Assembly: GCA_951406725.2 (NCBI GenBank)
Contig: OX597819.1
Coordinates: 121,272,001-121,336,000, forward strand
From: Octopus vulgaris
Lineage: Eukaryota
Direction of reading: 5' to 3'
DNA length: 64,000 nt
The notes below the pieces were generated by a model, which saw nothing but the letters and a program-made list of their open reading frames with translations, ran no database searches and was not told the origin of the DNA. The position numbers and the translations under genes are program-made. Within the stretch, counting starts at the first letter, position 1, and each line of letters begins with the position of its first letter. Shown in pieces: positions 2,086 through 36,630 of the stretch.

Positions 2086-2736
2086 TACGAGGTGAAGTGA
2101 AAATATTATCCGCACTTCCGCTCTAACATATTTTTATTATTGTCACACTGCCTTCTGCGCATCCGTGCTTATAGTTGGTATTATCGTGGTCACGTGATCG
2201 AAGTTTGAACCAATCGCAGCAATTTTTTTCTTCTTGGCTTTCCAGTCTAAACATGGCCACTCCACTAGTAATCTTCGCAAAAGAAGAACAAAGAGCAGTG
2301 ATCCGATTTCTTTGGTCGGAAGGTGTGTCAGGTCCTGATATTCATCGGAGGCTTGTAGTACAATATGGAGACAGTGCACTATCACACAGAAGTGTATATG
2401 AGTGGACCGAGATGTTTAAAACTGGCCGGACAAGCGGGAGACACAAAGAGGGAGTAGGATGCCCGTCAACTTCCACCACTAACGAGAAGAAACAGCAGGG
2501 TCGAGAGATCCTTTCGGGGTCGATAAATTAAGTACCAGTTACGCACTGGGGTCGATGTAATCGACTTAATACCTATGTCTGTCCTTGTTTGTCCCCTCTA
2601 TGTTTAGCCCCTTGTGGGTAATAAAGAAATAGGTAATGGTGAACCGGTTAACTATTACGATCCCTCGTAACACTGTGTGACAATAATTAAGATATGCTTT
2701 GGCGAAAGTGCGGATTATTTTTGACTTCCCCTCGTA
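2086..2736 (+). mobile_element. Internally deleted mariner-like transposon with N-terminal transposase remnant
   Basis: Imperfect ~35-bp TIRs (TACGAGGTGAAGTGAAAATATTATCCGCAC / GTGCGGATTATTTTTGACTTCCCCTCGTA) with TA flanks. The ORF reads MATPLVIFAKEEQRAVIRFLWSEG...IHRRL..QYG....SVYEW...FK.GR, a mariner HTH region. Confidence 0.9.
2508..2635 (+). mobile_element. 5'-truncated Nin-domain SINE (family B) nested in the mariner
   Basis: CCTTTCGGGGTCGATAAATTAAGTACCAG...TAAAGAAATAGGTA interrupts the transposase frame (REM|VMVNR). Confidence 0.88.
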
Positions 2737-6035: not shown

Positions 6036-6425
6036 GGCTGTGTGGTAAGTAGCTTGTTTACCAACCACATGGTTCCGGGTTCAGTCCCACTGCGTGGCAC
6101 CTTGGGCAAGTGTCTACTACTCTAGCCTCGGGCAGACCAAAGCCTTGTGAGTGGATTTGGTAGACGGAAACTGAAAGAAGCCCGTCGTATATATGTATAT
6201 ATATATGTATGTGCGTGTACGTTTGTGTGTCTGTGTTTGTCCCCCTAGCATTGCTTGACAACCGATGCTGGTGTGTTTATGTCCCCGTCACTTAGCGGTT
6301 CGGCAAAAGAGACCGATAGAATAAGTACTGGGCTTACAAGGAATAAGTCCCGGGGTCAAGTTGCTCGATTAAAGGCGGTGCACCAGCATGGCCGCAGTCA
6401 AAATGACTGAAACAAGTAAAAAGAG
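6036..6425 (+). mobile_element. tRNA-derived CORE-like SINE, family C (internal TA/TG microsatellite, CR1-like tail)
   Basis: GGCTGTGTGGTAAG...GGGTTCAGTCCC...GGCACCTTGGGCAAGTGTC...CAGCATGGCCGCAGTCAAAATGACTGAAAC; more than 10 related copies in the window. Confidence 0.92.
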
Positions 6426-6619
6426 AAAGAGATATATACGTGGTCTGATCAATCAGTATCTGGACTGTTGCCATAGTAACGAGGCTAAAGCACGCAGAAA
6501 AAAGCCGCTCGGCACAAATTGACCTCAAACTCTGTTGTGCATGCACACTAACTTTTAACGTTCTAGCTCACTTTCGCCATTTGCAGCAGTCCTTGGAAGG
6601 AATGTGTGTAGCGTGTGAT

Positions 6620-7261
6620 AATCATATTGTTAAATGGTTAAGAACATTAGAAATCTCTAGAGCATTAGTAGTCTCTATTCTCCCTACCCCACTAGCTTCA
6701 GTCTACTAACTTTAGCTAAAAGACATTGAAATATGCCAAAGTTAAATTCTTCATAATGGAGTTGGATTTATGGCTTTGACATTTGTACTACCTCTTCCTC
6801 TAGCTATAAATAGAAAAAAAATCTTCTTTGTCTCCATTGAACTAAATAAGAAACCCCCTCCCCATTGAAATCTAAATAACAAAGTGAACTCAGTAATAGA
6901 AAATCTACACATGGAGAATGACCTTCTACTACCATGTTCTAAATGATAAAATTAACCTCTCTGTCTATATATCTACCCTTTTTGTAATGTTGGCAAATGG
7001 ACTAAGTATAAAAATTTTCATTGTCTATTTAATTTAAAATATTCTATATGTGGCTGAGGATTGCTCTACATTTTAAAACTGATGTAATAGTTGCATTGTT
7101 TAATAAAATGAAGTAGCATGAAACGATTGTACTACACTACCTTGGATATCCTTGTTGCTTATTTTGATTATAATCACCCCATTTGATTTATACGGATAAT
7201 ACCATAGCAAATTCTGGTGCCTTTAAATTAAGTTCCATATTCATCTGAATCTAAATTTTGC

Positions 7262-7262
<1 letters not shown>
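6620..7262 (+). mobile_element. Penelope-like element 3' end (decayed GIY-YIG C-terminus plus tail)
   Basis: Frameshifted YK*KKNLLCLH...LNNK/SEL...LH pattern, followed by a hammerhead. The tail is shared with 14296-14406 and 51285-51510. Confidence 0.6.
7049..7136 (+). ncRNA. Type I hammerhead ribozyme motif
   Basis: TGTGG-CTGAGGA-T[TGCT..CATTTTA....TAAAATG..AGCA]T-GAAA-CGATTG-TA-CTACA. Stem I is TGTGG/CTACA and the predicted cleavage is after GTA (7131). Confidence 0.75.
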
Positions 7263-7359
<97 letters not shown>

Positions 7360-7840
7360 TTGAATATATGTATATGTATGTATGTATGGATGGATGGATG
7401 GATGGATGTATAGCCTTGTGCCAAAATCAGATGTCAGTAATATTCGGGGAAAAGATGCAGACAGCCATTCGCGAAGCACGAATCAAACATCTAACTTTTC
7501 CCCAACGATCAGGATGCCATTGCATCCGTTCAAATTCGACCTCTCAGTCTAACTGTCAAGGGAGAAAGATTGTCGTGTATTTTGATCGTGATTTAGAAGC
7601 ATCGAGAAATATGAAAACAACCCCTTTTTTTTTTTACAAAGATAGTCAAATGAAATGTAGTTCTATATAAGAGCTGACTATGTTAGGTAAACATGAAAAC
7701 TTTGGACGGAAAAGAAAGCGAAGAGCAACACATCCCCTGGGTTGATCTGACTGGTGGAGAATCATGTACGTTTGTATGTCGTGGGTCATGTGATTGTAAA
7801 ATTGTGTCATTGTATGTCTTTTATTGACTGAGTGTGTGAG

Positions 7841-8600
7841 GGTGGTGAGCTGGAAGAATCGTTTGCACGCCGAGTAAAATGCTTAGCAGCATTTCGTCCT
7901 TTTTTACTTCCTGACTTCAGATTCCGCTGAGGTCGACTTTGCCTTTTATCCTTTCGGGGTCGATAAATTAAGTACCAGTTGCGTACTAGAGTCGATCTAA
8001 TCGACTGGCCCCCTTCCCCAAAATTTCGGGCCTTGTGTCTAGAGTAGAACAGAATCGTTAGCACGCCGGGCGAAATGCTTAGCAGTATTTCGTCTGCCGG
8101 TATTTCGTTCTGGGTTCAAATTGCACCGAATTCGACTTTGCCTTTCATCCTTTCGGGGTCGATTAAATAAGTACCAATTACGCACTGGGGTCCCTTCTCT
8201 GTTTAGACCCTTGTGGGTAGTAAAGAAGTAGGTATTTCGTCTGACGCTACGTTCTGAGTTCAAGTTCCACCGAGGTCGACTTTGCCTTTCATCCTTTCAG
8301 GGTCGATTAAATAAGTACCAGTTACGCACTGGAGTCGATGTAATCGACTTAATCCGTTTGTCTGTCCTTGTTGGTCCTCTCTGTGTTTAGCCCCTTGTGG
8401 GTAGTAAAGAAATAGGCATTTCGTCTGCCGGTATTTCGTTCTGGGTTCAAATTCCTCCGAGGTCGACTTTGCCTTTCATTCTTCCAGGTTCGATTAAATA
8501 AGTACCAGTTACGTACTTATGTCGATGTAATCAACTTAATCCCTTTGTTTGTCCTACTTCCTCCCCTCTATGTTTAGCCTCCTTGTGGGTAATAAAGAAT
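7841..8600 (+). mobile_element. Head-to-tail array of four Nin-domain SINE (family B) units
   Basis: Four copies of GACTTTGCCTTTCATCCTTTCGGGGTCGAT.AA.TAAGTACCAG, a Deu/Nin-like core, each preceded by a GTTCAAAT B-box-like motif. Confidence 0.9.
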
Positions 8601-10999: not shown

Positions 11000-12253
11000 T
11001 TACTGCATTTTTTTTAACACTTATACTTTCGCCATTTTCATTTGGTCACGAAATGTCACATTACACACAGTTTCACCAACAAAATACATCCTTTTATCCG
11101 TAACACCGTGTGCTACTTTTATAGATTTACGTAATTTCGGTTTATCGATATGGTTCCAAGTTTCTTCATTCGTAATGATAATATCACTTCCAGGGTCTAA
11201 CTGCATTTTTACTCTTACACTTTTAATTTTCACATTTACCAATTTCCTCTTTTTCACATTACCATCTTCTTTCAACGACATCTTGTTTATTCTTGTTTTT
11301 TTCTTTATTCCAACGTTTTGTCATCTTGGTTTTACAGAGCGCTTTTACGTGTCCTATTTTTCCACAACGGAAAGGTTCCATTTGCTTAGATGGGCAATTT
11401 TTTTCTCGGGTGTAGACCTCCACTTGAAAAACATGGGTTTGTTTTCTGATTTCTGTCCTGTTTGTATTGTATTTTACTACACGCTTGATTTCTGTTCTGC
11501 CTGTTTTGCATTTCCCGACGCATTTATTTCACCTGGGAACAATCTTTATGTTCAATTTTCTCTGTGTCGTGTCTTAGATTTACTATTCTTTCACCTTTTT
11601 CACACTTGTAAGATTATAGCTTGGTTTTGTTCCACTTTAGCGAGAATTCGTGATCTTACTTCTGCGTCTTTTTCTGCAGTTAGTCCTTGAGTAACTATCA
11701 GGCACTTGAACATATCTGGCGTTAATTCGTCTAATTTGAATTTTTCACATTCTCTATTAACTCTACCAGCATATGTGATGTAGTCCTCCACGTTGTTCTT
11801 CTCTTGGTTGAAACATTTCCAGAATGTATTGAATAAAGAGTTTTTCTCACCAAACATTTTACACAGTTTGTCTATTGTATCTTTAAAGTTTATGTCAGAA
11901 GGATTTTTCAGGAATACGTAATTCCAGCACCGCTCATGTTTCCCTGCTGCCAGTTTTCTCAAGATTAGACATGTTTTCATATCTTCGTCCCAATCTTTGC
12001 ACTCTTTATTGAAGGTCTGTTCATATCTTCTATAGTACGCCTCGAAGATAACTCCTTCCTATGGCTCATACTTAAATACCGTTATTGAGTTTGCAACATA
12101 ATCTGGCGAGAACATCTTTTCAGCGTTTTTTCACGACTTGCTATTCATTAATTGCAGCATTTGTTGCTGTAATAGTAAATGTTGTTGTTGTTCTTTCAGT
12201 GGTTGTCGTTGCTGCTTTTGTAACCCGATCAAACCGGTCAACAATTCTTCCAT
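11000..12253 (-). pseudogene. Ty3/Gypsy LTR retrotransposon gag plus aspartic protease, decayed
   Basis: ATG at 12253 (MEELLTGLIGLQKQQ...); gag-like YAGRVNRECEKFKLDELTPDMFKCLIVTQGL; zinc knuckle F.CGKIGHVKALC; protease VKMQLDPGSDI (D-T-G degenerate). Stops and frameshifts are present. Confidence 0.88.
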
Positions 12254-21636: not shown

Positions 21637-21670
21637 GCGTGCGTCCGTGTTTGTGTCTGTCATTTGTACG

Positions 21671-21770
21671 NNNNNNNNNNNNNNNNNNNNNNNNNNNNNN
21701 NNNNNNNNNNNNNNNNNNNNNNNNNNNNNNNNNNNNNNNNNNNNNNNNNNNNNNNNNNNNNNNNNNNNNN
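21671..21770. other. Assembly gap (100 N)
   Basis: Run of N. Confidence 1.
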
Positions 21771-25647: not shown

Positions 25648-26004
25648 TTTGTTGTCGTTCCTGTGCTCATGTTAACTGTCGTTGGTGTCTAGCTCCCAGG
25701 TCAGCCATACTTAAATAGACCTATGCTATTAAAACAAAAAGGGCGTTCTGTCTGTGACCCTCCTGTTTATTTTCCCTTCAAGCTTATCCAGCATGGCCTC
25801 TCTTTCTCAACTCCTTTGTTCCTCTCCTTCTAACACGGTTTGAGAGTAATTGGTTATTTCGCCCAGATCGAAGAACAACTTAGACACTCTGCTGACAGTT
25901 TGAGCCTGATAAAACACAGTTCTATATTTAAGAGATGAGGAATTATGGACATTATTTACATTATTTACATTTGACGGATATTTGTCCTCATCTTGTTTGT
26001 TGTT

Positions 26005-26050
26005 AACACAACGTTTCGGCTGTTATACCCTCCAGCCTTCATCAGGTGTC
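26005..26050 (-). ncRNA. Minimal type I hammerhead ribozyme motif
   Basis: GACAC-CTGATGA-A-GGCTG(GAGGGTATAA)CAGCC-GAAA-CG-TT-GTGTT. Stem I is GACAC/GTGTT and stem III is the palindrome AACGTT. Confidence 0.8.
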
Positions 26051-26259
26051 TTGGGGAAATTTCGAACCTGAGTTCTCATTCCTAAGGTATTTTTTAATGT
26101 TGTTGTTGTTGTTGTTGTTGTTATTATTATCATTATTATTCAGGCCACTGCTTGGAATCGAACTCGTAATCTTGGAGTTAGTAGCCCGGTGCCATATGCC
26201 ATAATAATAACATCGAAAAATACCTTAGGAATGAGAATCCAGGTTCGAAATTTCCCCAA

Positions 26260-26305
26260 GGCACCTGATGAAGGCTGGAGGGTATATCAGCCGAAACTTT
26301 GAGTT
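26260..26305 (+). ncRNA. Minimal hammerhead motif, second (mutated) copy
   Basis: GGCAC-CTGATGA-A-GGCTG(GAGGGTATAT)CAGCC-GAAA-CTTT-GAGTT. Confidence 0.65.
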
Positions 26306-26580
26306 AACAACAAACGAGATGAGGACAAATATCCATCAAATGTAAATAATGTAAGCCTGATAAAGTTGCTTGTTTTAATGCGTCGTAGAGAGTGGAAAAT
26401 TCTAGCTATCACAGCAAGGTCCTTGTTAGTTGTACTCCTTATTTACTCTTCTCCCAGTCTATCGTCACCCGTATTGCGTTCATCTCTACACTTCACCCTA
26501 ACAACTACACTTAGTTCTTCACAAGGATGTTAGGTATCTAGAATTAATTTCCTGTTGAGACTAGATGTTCATTTTGCGAA

Positions 26581-26712
26581 GGCGCGTGGCTTAGTACTTT
26601 TCCAGTGGTGTTCTCTGTCTATTATTTTAACTTCATCCCACGGGAATATGGCGTAGTGGTTAAGAGTGCGGGCTACTAACCTCAAGATTCCGAGTTCGAT
26701 TCCAGGCAGTGA

Positions 26713-26793
<81 letters not shown>

Positions 26794-26845
26794 CAACATC
26801 GAAAAATGCCTTAGGAATGACAGACAGACAGACAGACAGACAGAC

Positions 26846-26914
<69 letters not shown>

Positions 26915-27197
26915 TACAGTTCGGCTGGCGATTGCATGGTCGTGAGTTCAATCTCGGCGCGGCGTGAGTTCAATAGCGTCCTTGAGCAAGACGCTTTATT
27001 TCACGTTCGTACAGTCTAGTCAGTCGGCAAAAATGAATTGTACCGGTATTTCAAAGGGCCAGCCTTGTCACATTCTGCGTCGCACTGAATCTCTCTTAAC
27101 TACATCATAGTTACACGGGTCTGTGAAGTGCACAGTCTCTTGCACGTTAATTTCATGAGCGGGTTGTTCCGTTGATCGGAACCAAATGGAACGCTCA
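26581..27197 (+). mobile_element. SINE with A-type head and tail D, split by the 26.6-26.9 kb insertion
   Basis: GGCGCGTGGCTTAGT at 26581; the element resumes at about 26915 with GAGTTCAATC, GTCCTTGAGCAAGACGCTTTATTTCACG and tail D. Confidence 0.72.
26641..26820 (+). mobile_element. 3'-truncated copy of the tRNA-headed hammerhead element
   Basis: A box TGGCGTAGTGG, anticodon-like loop CTACTAA, B box GAGTTCGATTCC, then (TAA)n and CATCGAAAAATGCCTTAGGAATGA, as at 26211. Confidence 0.85.
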
Positions 27198-32023: not shown

Positions 32024-32396
32024 TATATATTTATTTTATCATGAATGCAAACTAGAGGAATGGACGTAAACTCAAATAACAAACCGCAATATGGTGAGGG
32101 ATTACTGTAGCTACTTCGAATGTTATATGATCAGTGACTGGTTGTCGCTTGGTTTTCTACATGAGCTTCTACCATCCGCATTTACGACCACAAAAAATAA
32201 AGAAATAAAGAAAAGATAAATAAACCGATTTTCGGACGTTGGGCAGTTGCGCGTACGATAACTATGGAAGCATCTGGAAACGCAGGACTCCTTCAGACCC
32301 GGGCATCCCACTGCCTACCTCTGTTTCTCACTCAGTCGCTTTTGTGTATCAGCTGCGTTTGAATGAAAATAGTGTTGAAAAATATACATCCGACAT

Positions 32397-32555
32397 ACCA
32401 CCACCACCACCACCACCACCATTACCAGCACCAGCACCAGCTCCATCACCAGCTCCATCACCAGCATCACCACCACCACCACCACCACCACCACCAGCTC
32501 CAGCACCAGCACCACCACCAGCACCAGCACCACCACCATCACCACCAGCACCATC

Positions 32556-32586
<31 letters not shown>

Positions 32587-32600
32587 GCACCACCAGCACC

Positions 32601-32631
<31 letters not shown>

Positions 32632-32759
32632 CCACCACCACCACCACCACCACCACCACCACCACCACCACCACCACCACCACCACCACCACCTGCTGGT
32701 GTTGGTAGTGGTGGTAGTGGTGGTGGTGCCGCTGCTGTTGCTGGTAGTGGTAATGGTGG

Positions 32760-32790
<31 letters not shown>

Positions 32791-33150
32791 GATGGAGCTG
32801 GTGGTGGTGCTGGTGATGGAGCTGGTGGTGGTGCTGGTAATGGTGGTGGTGGTGCTGGTTGTGGTGGTGGTGCTGGTGGTGGTGGTGCTGGTGGTGCTGG
32901 TGCTGGTGGTGCTGGTGGTGCTGGTGGTGGTGCTGGTGGTGCTGGTAGTGCTGGTGGTGCTGGTGGTGCTGGTGGTGCTGGTGCTGGTGGTGGTGCTGGT
33001 GATAGAGCTGGTGATGGAGCTGGTGATGGAGCTGGTGATGGAGGTGGTGGTGATGCTGGTGATGGAGCTGGTGATGGAGCTGGTGCTGGTGCTGGTAATG
33101 GTGGTGGTGGTGGTGGTGGTGGTGGTGGTGGTGGTGGTAGTGGTGGTGGT
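32397..33150. repeat. Fold-back (CCA)n/(TGG)n trinucleotide inverted repeat
   Basis: The CCA-type arm switches to TGG-type at about 32693, and the variant units at the outer ends mirror each other. Confidence 0.9.
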
Positions 33151-33488
33151 CGTGGCGATGATATTATTTATGTTGCGGTAGCGACGTCGTCGTTGTTATT
33201 GTTGTTGGTGCTGTTTATGATGGTAGTGGTGGTGGTGGTGGTGGTGGTAGTAGAGGTGACGGTGGCATTAGTAACAATAGTATGGAAGACGCTTGTTTGT
33301 TGCGACGACGACGACGATGATTTTGATGATGATGATGAGGAGGAGGAGGAGGAGGAGAAGGAGGAGGAGGAGGATGATACTGGTGGTGGTGCTCGTGGTG
33401 GAGCTGGTGGTGCTGCTGGTGGTGCTCGTGGTGAAGCTGGTGGTGGTGCTGGTATTGGTGGTGGTGCTGGTGGTGGTGGTGGTGGTGG

Positions 33489-33519
<31 letters not shown>

Positions 33520-33731
33520 GCTGGTGCTGGTGCTGGTGGTAATGGTGGTGGTAACCAGTGGTGGTTACACGTTGTTGTTGTTCATAGTGTTATTGTTAAA
33601 GCTGCTGCTACGGCTATTGCTACTGCTGCGGCTACTGCTGCTACTATTGTCCTTGTTATTGTAATTCTTATGAGTGTGTCTTTTTTTTTAAGATTAATGT
33701 TTATATTCATGTGTGTGTGTGTGTGTGTGAG

Positions 33732-33762
<31 letters not shown>

Positions 33763-33874
33763 AGTGTGTGTGTGTGTGTGTGTGTGTTACTGCAACCGTC
33801 ATCTTATCTTTATCGCACATGCATTACCATGCAAGGATGGGAACAAGCTGACAACAATTCCTGTCTGTCAACAA

Positions 33875-34023
33875 CACCATCATCATCATCATCATCATCG
33901 TAGTCATCACCATCATCACCACCACCACCATCATCATAGTCATTATCATCATTGTCGTCATCACCACCACCACAAACATCATTAGCCTTAACCTCATCAT
34001 CATCATCGTCATCACCATCATCG

Positions 34024-34059
<36 letters not shown>

Positions 34060-34178
34060 CCATCATCATCATCATTATCATCGTCATCGTCATCATCATC
34101 ATCGTCATCATCATCATCGTCATCATCATCATCGTCATCATCATCACCGTCATCATAATCATCGTCATCATCATCATC

Positions 34179-34230
<52 letters not shown>

Positions 34231-34350
34231 CCACCACCACTACTCTCATCAGCGTTGCCATCACCATCACCACATCACTACCTTCATTACCACCGCCATC
34301 GCCACCATCACCACCGCTACCATTATTACCGCCACTACCACCACCACTAA
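33875..34350. repeat. (CAT/CAC)n microsatellite
   Basis: Direct reading. Confidence 0.97.
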
Positions 34351-34552
34351 CGAGTGTCTTCTGCTGTAGCCTGGGCTGTCTAGACGGTTGCGTATGATGT
34401 TGTGGAAGAAAACTGAAAGAAGCCCATCGTATATGTTACTGTGTGTGTGTACGTGTGCGTGTGTATGTGTGTCTGTGTGTGTTGGTGTCTCCACCACACC
34501 TGCATGGCAACCAGTGCTGGTTTGTTTACGTCCCCCGTGCGTTCGTGGTTAG

Positions 34553-35115
34553 GCACTAGCCCAGAAGGAATATAAGAGACACCATGACAATATAGCCAGG
34601 CTTGTCCATTGGACACTCTGCAAGAAGTATGGACTTGACAGAGCAAAATATTGGTACGACCACAAACCTGAACGCATCGTCGAAAACAGAAATGCAAAGA
34701 TCCTATGGGATTTTATGATTCAGTGCGACCATGAAATAGAGAATAGGAAGCCGGACATAGTCTTAATTGAGAAAGAAAACAAACTTTGCTTGATCATAGA
34801 TATGGCATGCCCAGCTGACAGCAATGTATGCGATAAGGAAGAAAGAAAAGTTGAGAGATATGACAGGTTAGCTTAGGAAGTTAAGCAGTTGTGGTCGGTG
34901 AAAAAGGTAGCATTAGTACTAATAATTGTCAGAGCCCTGGGAACAGAGGGCAAAAATCTCGAGAAGTACGTGGAACAAATAGGGCCTGCAATAAGGGTGG
35001 AGCACTTGCAGAAAAACAGCACTACTAGGAACCGCTCGAATACTCCGGAAGGTGTTCGAAAAATAAGAGGTGTTACCATTGTTCACTGGTAATGAACAGC
35101 TGACACCGTAGTACA
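34553..35115 (+). mobile_element. R4/Dong-like non-LTR retrotransposon 3' end (restriction-like endonuclease domain)
   Basis: LAQKEYKRHHDNIARLVHWTLCKKYGL...KILWDFMIQCDHEIENRKPDIVLIEK...IIDMACPAD...KEERKVERY...ALLGTARILRKV, with one stop and one frameshift. Confidence 0.9.
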
Positions 35116-35530: not shown

Positions 35531-35991
35531 TAAAAAAAAGTATACATAAATACGTACGTACGTATATACATACATGTGTATGTATGTGTAATGTCCTGAA
35601 GGAAAGAATCATTCGGCGATAAGAGACAGAGGTATGTGAAAGTAGCTCCTACATCTTCCTTCACCGGAAAATGTCGTCTCAAAAAGAAAGAATGCTTACT
35701 TTTTTTTCTGAAATTTTTCTAAAACAATTGACATTTATTTTTAAAGGAAGCTTCCCATCTGCAGCGGAAATATCTACAACAGACTCGAAGTAAATAAAAT
35801 ATAAACAGCTTACTATTTCAGTCAGACCATGCACAAAACATACATATCGAAATACATACATACATGCATACATAGATATATACATATATACATATATATC
35901 CATATATTTCCCTTCTTTCCTGAACGCCCAATAATACTTTATTTGTGCCACATCCTCGCGTTGTTGTCTTTTTGTTTTCTTGTTTGGATTA

Positions 35992-36057
<66 letters not shown>

Positions 36058-36084
36058 CGTGTTTGTGTATCGTTATGTGTATTT

Positions 36085-36630
36085 TATGTACAGAGAAGGT
36101 TCACAAAGAAGATCGTCCCTTTGCATCTGCTCAGCTACTGGGAAAGGCTGAAACAGCTAAGACTCTACTCTGCTCCCTGGAGAGAAGGCGGGAGAGTTAT
36201 GCAGTAATATACATCTGGAAGATCCTGGAAGGAATTGTGCCAAATTTTGGCATTGAAAGCTATAGCAATGCCAGAACGGCACGACACTGCATAGTGCCAA
36301 AGATCCCAACAATGCCATCACGCGTCAGGACCAGTTACTGCAACAGCCTGGGATTTCAAGGGCCCACACATTTTTAATATTCTCCCAAAGAGCCTGAGGA
36401 ACCTGCACAAAGTAGATGTAGGAGGTTTCAAATCAAAGCTGGACATCTTCCTGTCGAGAGTCCCAGATGAACCTACCTCACGGCAAGAGATGTAAATGTG
36501 GGTAGCTATATCAAACTCCATTCTTCACCAAGTGCCACATATTGGAGGAGGCTCTCAGTAATAACAGTGTAGCCAAACGGTGGTGCATCAGCATGGCCGC
36601 AGCTATGAGCTGAAACTACAGCAAAAAAAG
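36085..36630 (+). mobile_element. CR1-like LINE 3' end
   Basis: VQRRFTKKI...SYWERLKQLRLYS/LERRRESYAVIYIWKILEGIVPN...GP.IFNILPKSLRNL...FKSKLDIFLSRVPDEP, followed by a 3' UTR and an A-rich end. Confidence 0.88.

Follow-up and report, generated by a model that had tools for sequence, protein, structure and literature searches.

We found that a hammerhead-bearing, tRNA-headed unit of about 300 nt in the Octopus vulgaris genome is the pseudo-LTR of a Penelope-like element (PLE) of the Penelope/Poseidon type, the clade being assigned by architecture. The head of the unit probably acts as an internal Pol III promoter of this PLE. Copies of the unit were first seen in a stretch of 64,000 nt (hereafter the window), where a first-pass annotation had described them as a non-autonomous SINE/retrozyme hybrid.

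The locus in the window

The features of the locus are given below in window coordinates.

25903..25913, +: left copy of the target-site duplication (TSD), 11 bp, exact, two occurrences in the window
25916..26200, −: left arm, a solo pseudo-LTR with a partly deleted head
25916..25950, −: 33-nt PLE 'tail', at the left-arm end only
26005..26050, −: minimal type I hammerhead, intact, predicted to cut after 26010
26077..26079, −: ATG, opening a frame that enters the RT ORF in full-length copies
26139..26200, −: tRNA-derived head of the left arm, B box kept, A box mostly deleted
26201..26353, +: right arm, a 5'-truncated copy with its ATG at 26231, tail absent
26260-26305, +: right-arm hammerhead, degenerate
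26354..26364, +: right copy of the TSD, 11 bp
26581..26595, +: 5' end of an interrupted host tRNA-headed repeat, by comparison with an intact relative in locus L131
26598..26644, −: antisense fragment of PLE GIY-YIG coding sequence, 97.9% over 47 nt to locus L205
26636..26718, +: intact tRNA-derived head of the third copy (tRNA position 1 = 26642)
26649-26659, +: A box of the third copy
26692-26703, +: B box of the third copy
26719..26820, +: (AAT)n leader and first ORF bases of the third copy (ATG 26817-26819)

The inverted pair and its exact 11-bp TSD, both reported in the first-pass annotation, were borne out. The two arms (25956-26107 and 26203-26354) are 92% complementary, and the 11-mer occurs in the 64-kb window only at 25903 and 26354 and is not extendable. 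The left arm comprises a head remnant, an (AAT/AAC)n run, the first 54 ORF codons, the intact hammerhead and the terminal tail. The right arm begins within the repeat run and ends ~35 nt early. One hammerhead had been claimed for each strand; the minus-strand one is intact, but in the plus-strand one the ACGU palindrome is gone and helix I is partly lost. Similarly, the head is complete in the third copy, which has the sole intact head in the window with A box, B box and (AAT)n placed as claimed, whereas a deletion of ~16 nt removes most of the A box from the left-arm head. As claimed, the third copy is inserted within another tRNA-headed repeat, the remainder of which lies at about 26920-27090; the copy ends at a tetranucleotide microsatellite. 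It is preceded by the antisense endonuclease piece at 26598-26644, which translates as WDEVKIIDREHHWK and is joined to the third-copy head via a CCCA microhomology.

Elsewhere in the window, there is an assembly gap (a run of N at about 21660-21760), and 2 kb of GC-rich trinucleotide repeats at 32200-34400 give long spurious frames. The frames at 2175-2531 (+), 11600-12058 (−), 34553-34876 (+) and 35805-36377 (−) resemble remnants of a Tc1/mariner transposase, a Ty3-like gag and two LINEs.

The unit belongs to a coding Penelope-like element

The lead to the parent element came from 7 of 55 head-intact arms, in which one sequence recurs upstream of the head. A pattern made from it has 882 exact matches, which continue into one conserved sequence, the 3' end of an ORF for a reverse transcriptase (RT) and a GIY-YIG endonuclease (EN), encoding the GIY-YIG C-terminus. 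Three near-full copies show the ORF, its stop codon, 33 nt and then the whole unit. The longest stop-free RT+EN frame found has 569 codons (locus L204). At L205, a pseudo-LTR tail, the ORF and a pseudo-LTR lie within an exact 12-bp TSD, and the upstream partial pseudo-LTR enters the ORF in frame. What had been called an 'AT-rich end' is actually protein-coding, and the 'tail' of the unit opens with an ATG and stays in frame for 54-55 codons, the start of the ORF. The left-arm peptide shares 52% identity with residues 18-59 of a full-length PLE protein of 847 aa from another source (pairwise E 7e-10), and the next 187 codons of L205 match this protein at E 5e-30. We identified 813 homologues with the RT domain PF00078. 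The element protein is 75% identical to a protein annotated from Octopus sinensis, and tblastn to Neptune matched the RT thumb (E 2e-11) and the EN (E 7e-4). Since the unit lies just downstream of the ORF stop and its 'tail' encodes the N-terminus of the PLE protein, it is a pseudo-LTR.

Other PLE hallmarks are present as well: an RT ORF with a C-terminal GIY-YIG domain, a pseudo-LTR with the ORF start and a hammerhead, and inverted one-tail copies. The CxxC zinc-finger-like linker between RT and EN is absent from the L204 and L205 translations, compared by eye with Neptune copies. This linker is reported to separate the Neptune/Nematis type from the Penelope/Poseidon type (PMC8557442). The Pfam GIY-YIG model has no match to the endonuclease of this element; the true partner was first missed because that model favours Neptune. 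Every ORF copy seen is decayed, and no intact full-length tandem source copy was found.

The unit also has the characters of a tRNA-SINE, namely an A/B-box head and dispersed, high-copy short insertions with TSDs. A composite SINE distinct from its partner except for the tail does not fit, the whole unit including the head being the pseudo-LTR of that partner. Neptune-type PLEs were rejected as the partner, since 30 + 10 + 20 loci from GIY-YIG searches do not contain the tail sequence of the unit. From the first-pass annotation, the tRNA-derived head, the PLE-type minimal hammerhead, the PLE machinery and the SINE-like short, high-copy form were retained, and the autonomous PLE with a matching terminal repeat that it proposed to look for exists as an RT + GIY-YIG ORF followed by the unit. 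The idea of a separate non-autonomous element with a borrowed PLE tail was not supported. The tRNA-like segment lies within the terminal repeat of an autonomous-type PLE, much as in the case that the annotation had named as speaking against it, but this PLE is not an ordinary one.

We also observed a young Neptune-type family (L121-L130, L131-L150) with intact 781-codon ORFs and copies that are 97-99% identical. This family has a U3-A8 hammerhead and inverted partial pseudo-LTRs, and at least five further Neptune-type families are present. Loci L201 and L202 hold one inverted PLE insertion with its flanks in two copies about 108 kb apart, and a 2.9-kb LINE-like RT piece lies at the inversion junction in L201.

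Copy number, spread and age of the family

A tail search of the 2.8-Gb genome gave 2850 candidates and a head search 1985. Thirty loci were taken from each, and the 59 distinct loci are best matches, not a random sample. Head and tail co-occur in 50 of the 59. Inversion is seen at 39 of the 59 loci, and TSDs of at least 10 nt (mode 11-12) at 26, versus 13 of 300 mismatched flank pairs. An exact 36-nt hammerhead stretch has 1827 matches in the genome (reversed control, 0) and is present in 5 of 54 arms unselected for it, which leads to an estimate of ~2x10^4 arms genome-wide. In 400 kb of unselected DNA (40 stretches), two short loci and no ORF pieces were found, in agreement with this estimate within a wide error. 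Short copies that lack the ORF exceed ORF-bearing ones about 5-10 to 1.

Unselected arms differ by 5.7% from the consensus; with the rate reported in PMC13282606, the family would be roughly 16 million years old. The exact 36-nt stretch occurs in sequencing runs of five organisms, and none of the listed runs with it is recorded as RNA. Beyond linked deletions and CpG decay, no subfamilies are seen in 63 unselected arms, a small sample, and the paired arms of one locus have 7 derived changes in common among 205 differences. Searches for another family with the same tail or hammerhead core gave 27 and 67 matches, all of which are truncations, point variants or the sister family described next; the same core pattern with the usual upstream base has 3536 matches. 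The older sister family (L156:2640-2711, L191-L200; 672 candidates) has a B box in its head and also occurs in a short inverted form. Its middle differs, and its hammerhead and 3' end are homologous, with the same open frame running through the hammerhead.

The hammerhead and the RNA data

The minus-strand hammerhead has a 5-bp helix I, a 5-bp helix II, an ACGU palindrome and a GUU triplet, and the motif lies at ORF position +70. On its own, the 46-nt hammerhead has a fold that is no better than those of shuffled sequences (z -1.0). The modelled dimer (-24.1, versus -30.8 for the minimum-energy dimer) is not better than two monomers. The hammerhead is of the usual PLE type and, by prediction, would need to dimerise or be helped by protein in order to cut. 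Genomic copies have changes at 17/660 core, 65/1146 stem and 267/5701 other positions, a pattern that base composition may explain. Both the core and ACGU are kept in 25 of 61 unselected arms.

Three RNA-seq runs of a related organism (organism B) yielded 6,089-8,271 reads each from ~6% of each run. The strands are equally represented, and starts and ends do not pile up in these ordinary fragmented cDNA libraries, which are ill suited to show it. Loose read ends point to a few host transcripts. Among the joints displayed, there is no go-back joint at the cleavage site, the libraries being unsuited to circles. At L034:1490-1780, A>G/T>C sites number 57-64 in the RNA runs versus 12 in the contig set, and C>T/G>A sites 48-50 versus 24. 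The A>G/T>C excess fits A-to-I editing of inverted pairs; different individuals and a few dominant expressed copies could also explain it.

A one-tail rule for inverted pairs

The tail-side ends of 98 hits are bimodal: 41 lie at positions 175-179 and 44 at 135-154, with five between and eight further in. The inner cluster is thus about 25-45 nt inside the extreme end. Thirty of 33 inverted pairs are tailed on exactly one end, three on none and no pair on both (p=6e-7 versus independence). These 33 are opposite-strand pairs within 1.3 kb, from 62 loci, and two widely spaced ones may be separate insertions. An inverted, 5'-truncated copy with a 30-40 bp tail on one end is described as a PLE structure in PMC8557442. 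The Poseidon protein PAc from Anolis is reported to nick and extend both strands, with two internal priming sites in the start of the ORF and no need for hammerhead cleavage (PMC11167929). The one-tail rule matches these two RT start sites and the two-strand extension. It is genomic evidence that the two PLE RT start sites known in vitro are used one per strand of the same insertion, which explains the inverted repeats of PLEs. This evidence stands independent of the Pol III question.

The tRNA-derived head and Pol III transcription

With numbering from its first G, the head consensus agrees with tRNA at 17 of 17 invariant positions tested. It scores 23.4 bits on a profile of 30 tRNA loci of this genome, and the third-copy head (26636..26718) scores 19.4 bits, while 1000 shuffles reach at most 4.6. 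Both the A box and the B box of the consensus are preserved, and its cloverleaf stems have decayed, as they have in SINE heads. By these sequence comparisons, the head is tRNA-derived. The best local scores for the isotype are those of Arg-TCG and Ala-TGC (62; shuffles up to 57), with 7-8 isotypes sampled. Rfam at the gathering threshold and ARAGORN found no match in the window, nor did RF00005 and the hammerhead families even at E<=10. Because the library searches were blank and the fold is no better than shuffles, the tRNA and hammerhead assignments rest on conserved positions.

The 5' boundary of the unit precedes the A box by 13 nt. There are 862 head-intact matches; of the first 100 listed, judged by eye, 10 extend upstream in sense and the rest stop within ~10 nt; pattern counts permit an extended share of up to about a fifth. 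Of the copies that match the conserved upstream sequence, about 8 in 10 run another 60 nt (by eye). The 5' break-offs are often palindromic, centred on TGCCC-NN-GGGCA. Pol III starts ~12-13 nt upstream of the A box, as in Alu.

The L205 sense strand contains no TTTT in 2634 nt, versus 5.6 expected by shuffling (p=0.02 with synonymous shuffling of the in-frame pieces). There is also none in L206 (1479 nt) or in five shorter pieces; the three in L204 are probably later mutations because they are absent from L205 and L206. The Phe codons of the ORF are TTC-biased, and Neptune ORFs of the same genome have 8-9 TTTT. Among related PLE ORF stretches in metagenome contigs, 4 of 46 lack TTTT (the 46 are the long matches among 78 loci, some redundant), and T5 is absent from 19 of the 36 non-redundant stretches. 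For this reason, the T-run argument carries modest weight, and it vanishes if the organism needs T5. Neither TATAAA nor CCAAT occurs between the stop and the hammerhead in two copies of the element, with only 33 nt from the stop to the hairpin. In both Neptune families, and in most of six further controls, one or both motifs are present.

Read jointly, these features make it probable that the head is the internal Pol III promoter of the PLE. We propose more tentatively, as a possibility that falls short of probable, an autonomous coding retrotransposon that is transcribed by Pol III end to end, has a terminator-purged ORF and sheds SINE-like solo pseudo-LTRs; a second, distantly related PLE on the metagenome contig L208 suggests recurrence. 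A 2.6-kb uncapped RNA would then have to be translated, which counts against Pol III. PMC10886601 argues that autonomous partners must use Pol II.

L208 (1-4513) carries a perfect 2791-bp tandem PLE unit with a 901-codon open frame, at 38% to the query. Its pseudo-LTR has an A-box/B-box-like stretch in the same position, AATAAT and a hammerhead, and is the sole scorer on the tRNA profile among 19 distinct control pseudo-LTR regions (6.4 bits; 2/2000 shuffles). L208 is one of the four TTTT-free related ORF stretches and has two T4 and no T5 in 2547 nt. It also has TATAAA, and an Rfam tRNA search of it gave no match.

Proposed mechanism and alternative explanations

Under Pol III transcription of the PLE, transcripts would start ~13 nt upstream of the A box. 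The RT/endonuclease would nick each strand of AT-rich DNA, with 11-12 bp between the nicks, and two cDNAs would be primed internally, at +164 from the ATG (the tail end) and at ~+131 (about 33 nt inside). When priming takes place on the 5'-proximal pseudo-LTR, the cDNA would run off the RNA 5' end after ~300 nt and often snap back on the built-in TGCCC-NN-GGGCA hairpin. Joined head to head, the two cDNAs would form an inverted pair of solo SINE-like pseudo-LTRs that has a single tail and is flanked by a TSD. ORF-bearing copies would arise when a more-than-unit transcript is primed on its 3' pseudo-LTR. Hammerhead cleavage need not be required for insertion.

Alternatively, the solo pseudo-LTRs might now be a true SINE with their own Pol III promoter and RT start sites, transcribed to the first flanking T-run and mobilised in trans, so that short copies beget short copies. 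We consider this rather unlikely. A solo copy does hold all cis parts, its sense strand has no T4, and a defined 3' end is unnecessary because priming is internal. Short copies also predominate (two short loci and no ORF pieces per 400 kb unselected), and the older sister family, whose middle differs, likewise occurs in a short and inverted form. However, the unit is collinear with the autonomous pseudo-LTR along its full length, and the lack of subfamilies in 63 arms, with 7/205 shared changes, indicates a star-like burst from one near-consensus source. Moreover, some short-looking copies, including the third copy in the window, are joined to antisense ORF pieces and hence came from long RNA. 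Long templates are also central to an unlikely scenario in which the tRNA segment is a passenger or a Pol II promoter, transcription is by Pol II or read-through, and the sharp 5' boundary results from hairpin snap-back. Such products do break at the hairpin (window 26598-26644 and at least two more), PLE pseudo-LTRs are reported normally to hold the promoter, and the RNA reads resemble host-gene read-through, a few flanks dominating the loose ends. Yet the boundary comes only once copying has passed through the entire hairpin, at the A-box distance that the usual geometry predicts for a Pol III start, and the consensus preserves the A and B boxes but not the cloverleaf stems. The absence of TATA/CCAAT, with only 33 nt from stop to hairpin, the T4 depletion and the TTC-biased Phe codons also speak for Pol III over this scenario.

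The hybrid proposed in the first-pass annotation raises the case of a retrozyme, in which tandem copies self-cleave, monomers circularise and rolling-circle reverse transcription follows. A type I hammerhead is present, and animal retrozymes are reported to derive from PLE pseudo-LTRs (bioRxiv 10.64898/2026.07.22.740005). The copies are dispersed or inverted, not tandem, however, with same-strand repeats at only 2-3 of 59 loci, and they end at head and tail, not at the cleavage site. An inverted-pair transcript is predicted to form a single long hairpin (-259 kcal/mol) in which the ribozyme would be buried, and only 25/61 unselected arms keep the core and ACGU. A retrozyme is thus highly improbable, and a PLE pseudo-LTR with a probable Pol III promoter is our preferred reading.

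Relation to known elements

The element shares several features with the Penelope/Poseidon PLEs described in PMC11167929 (PAc), PMC8557442 and PMC4209133: a single RT + C-terminal GIY-YIG ORF, a pseudo-LTR with the ORF start and a minimal hammerhead, AT-rich targets, and inverted 5'-truncated copies with a 30-40 bp tail on one end. PMC4209133 reports minimal hammerheads and opposite-strand hammerhead pairs 100-700 bp apart in Schistosoma. Unlike the elements in these accounts, the pseudo-LTR here starts with a tRNA-derived A/B-box cassette, without TATA/CCAAT, and the family consists predominantly of solo pseudo-LTRs that share one sharp 5' end.

The first-pass annotation knew of no described example, but a tRNA-SINE with a hammerhead has precedents in Sm-alpha and Sj-alpha of Schistosoma, for which a tRNA-related head, apparent Pol III transcription, a hammerhead and >10,000 copies are reported (PMC2770079, PMC6765202). 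A tRNA-related head followed by a hammerhead and a high copy number are common to both systems. As described there, Sm-alpha/Sj-alpha have a canonical hammerhead and a tandem/satellite organization, with no known autonomous element containing the unit, whereas here a coding PLE contains the unit, which is inserted in inverted pairs flanked by TSDs. The TRIMp3 elements Cassandra, Helenus and Ajax are described as having a small-RNA-derived Pol III promoter inside the terminal repeat, probably by SINE capture (PMC10886601). Such a promoter in the terminal repeat, with Pol III use being putative here, and solo repeats outnumbering full elements are shared features. TRIMp3 are non-autonomous LTR elements with PBS/PPT, in contrast to the protein-coding PLE found here, a kind of element that the same account deems unlikely for Pol III. 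TRIMp3 identity (two LTRs, 4-5 bp TSD) is contradicted by the mostly 10-12 bp TSDs and the PLE-type architecture.

Short sequences mobilised by PLE proteins are known both as animal non-LTR retrozymes, which bear hammerheads (PMC7761336; bioRxiv 10.64898/2026.07.22.740005), and as pseudo-LTR-related non-autonomous Chlamys such as MRC1 (PMC8557442), and the short copies here resemble both. Retrozymes are tandem, reported promoterless and circle-forming, and a tRNA head is not described in the accounts compared. A conventional non-LTR retrozyme exists in the same genome (L151:2100-4600), with tandem ~359-bp monomers, canonical type I hammerheads and an inverted block; L139 holds a relative of this array. 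A short non-coding family with a U3-A8 hammerhead variant (L188:7400-8400, L109:1-300, L167:9750-10000) forms tandem and inverted blocks adjoining (TA)n, and no tRNA head was seen in it.

No autonomous PLE with a tRNA-derived pseudo-LTR appeared in the literature searched, which took in few subscription journals and had Repbase, Dfam and SINEBase outside its scope. The supplement of a curated Octopus annotation (PMC13282606) does not mention hammerheads or ribozymes, and its separately deposited library may contain the family. A Pol III SINE with a hammerhead is already known from Schistosoma; unusual here is the tRNA-derived pseudo-LTR head on a coding PLE.

Implications

By the accepted division, transcription of autonomous retrotransposons falls to Pol II (or Pol I read-through), and only short non-coding passengers have Pol III promoters. 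If the Pol III reading is true, a coding PLE with a tRNA-derived promoter region would break this division. It would also raise the question of how an uncapped 2.6-kb RNA gets translated and whether the hammerhead at +70 matters. Solo pseudo-LTRs of this kind would represent a route to SINEs that does not involve the fusion of a separate head and tail. As ready-made hairpins, the inverted pairs may also feed A-to-I editing in this lineage.
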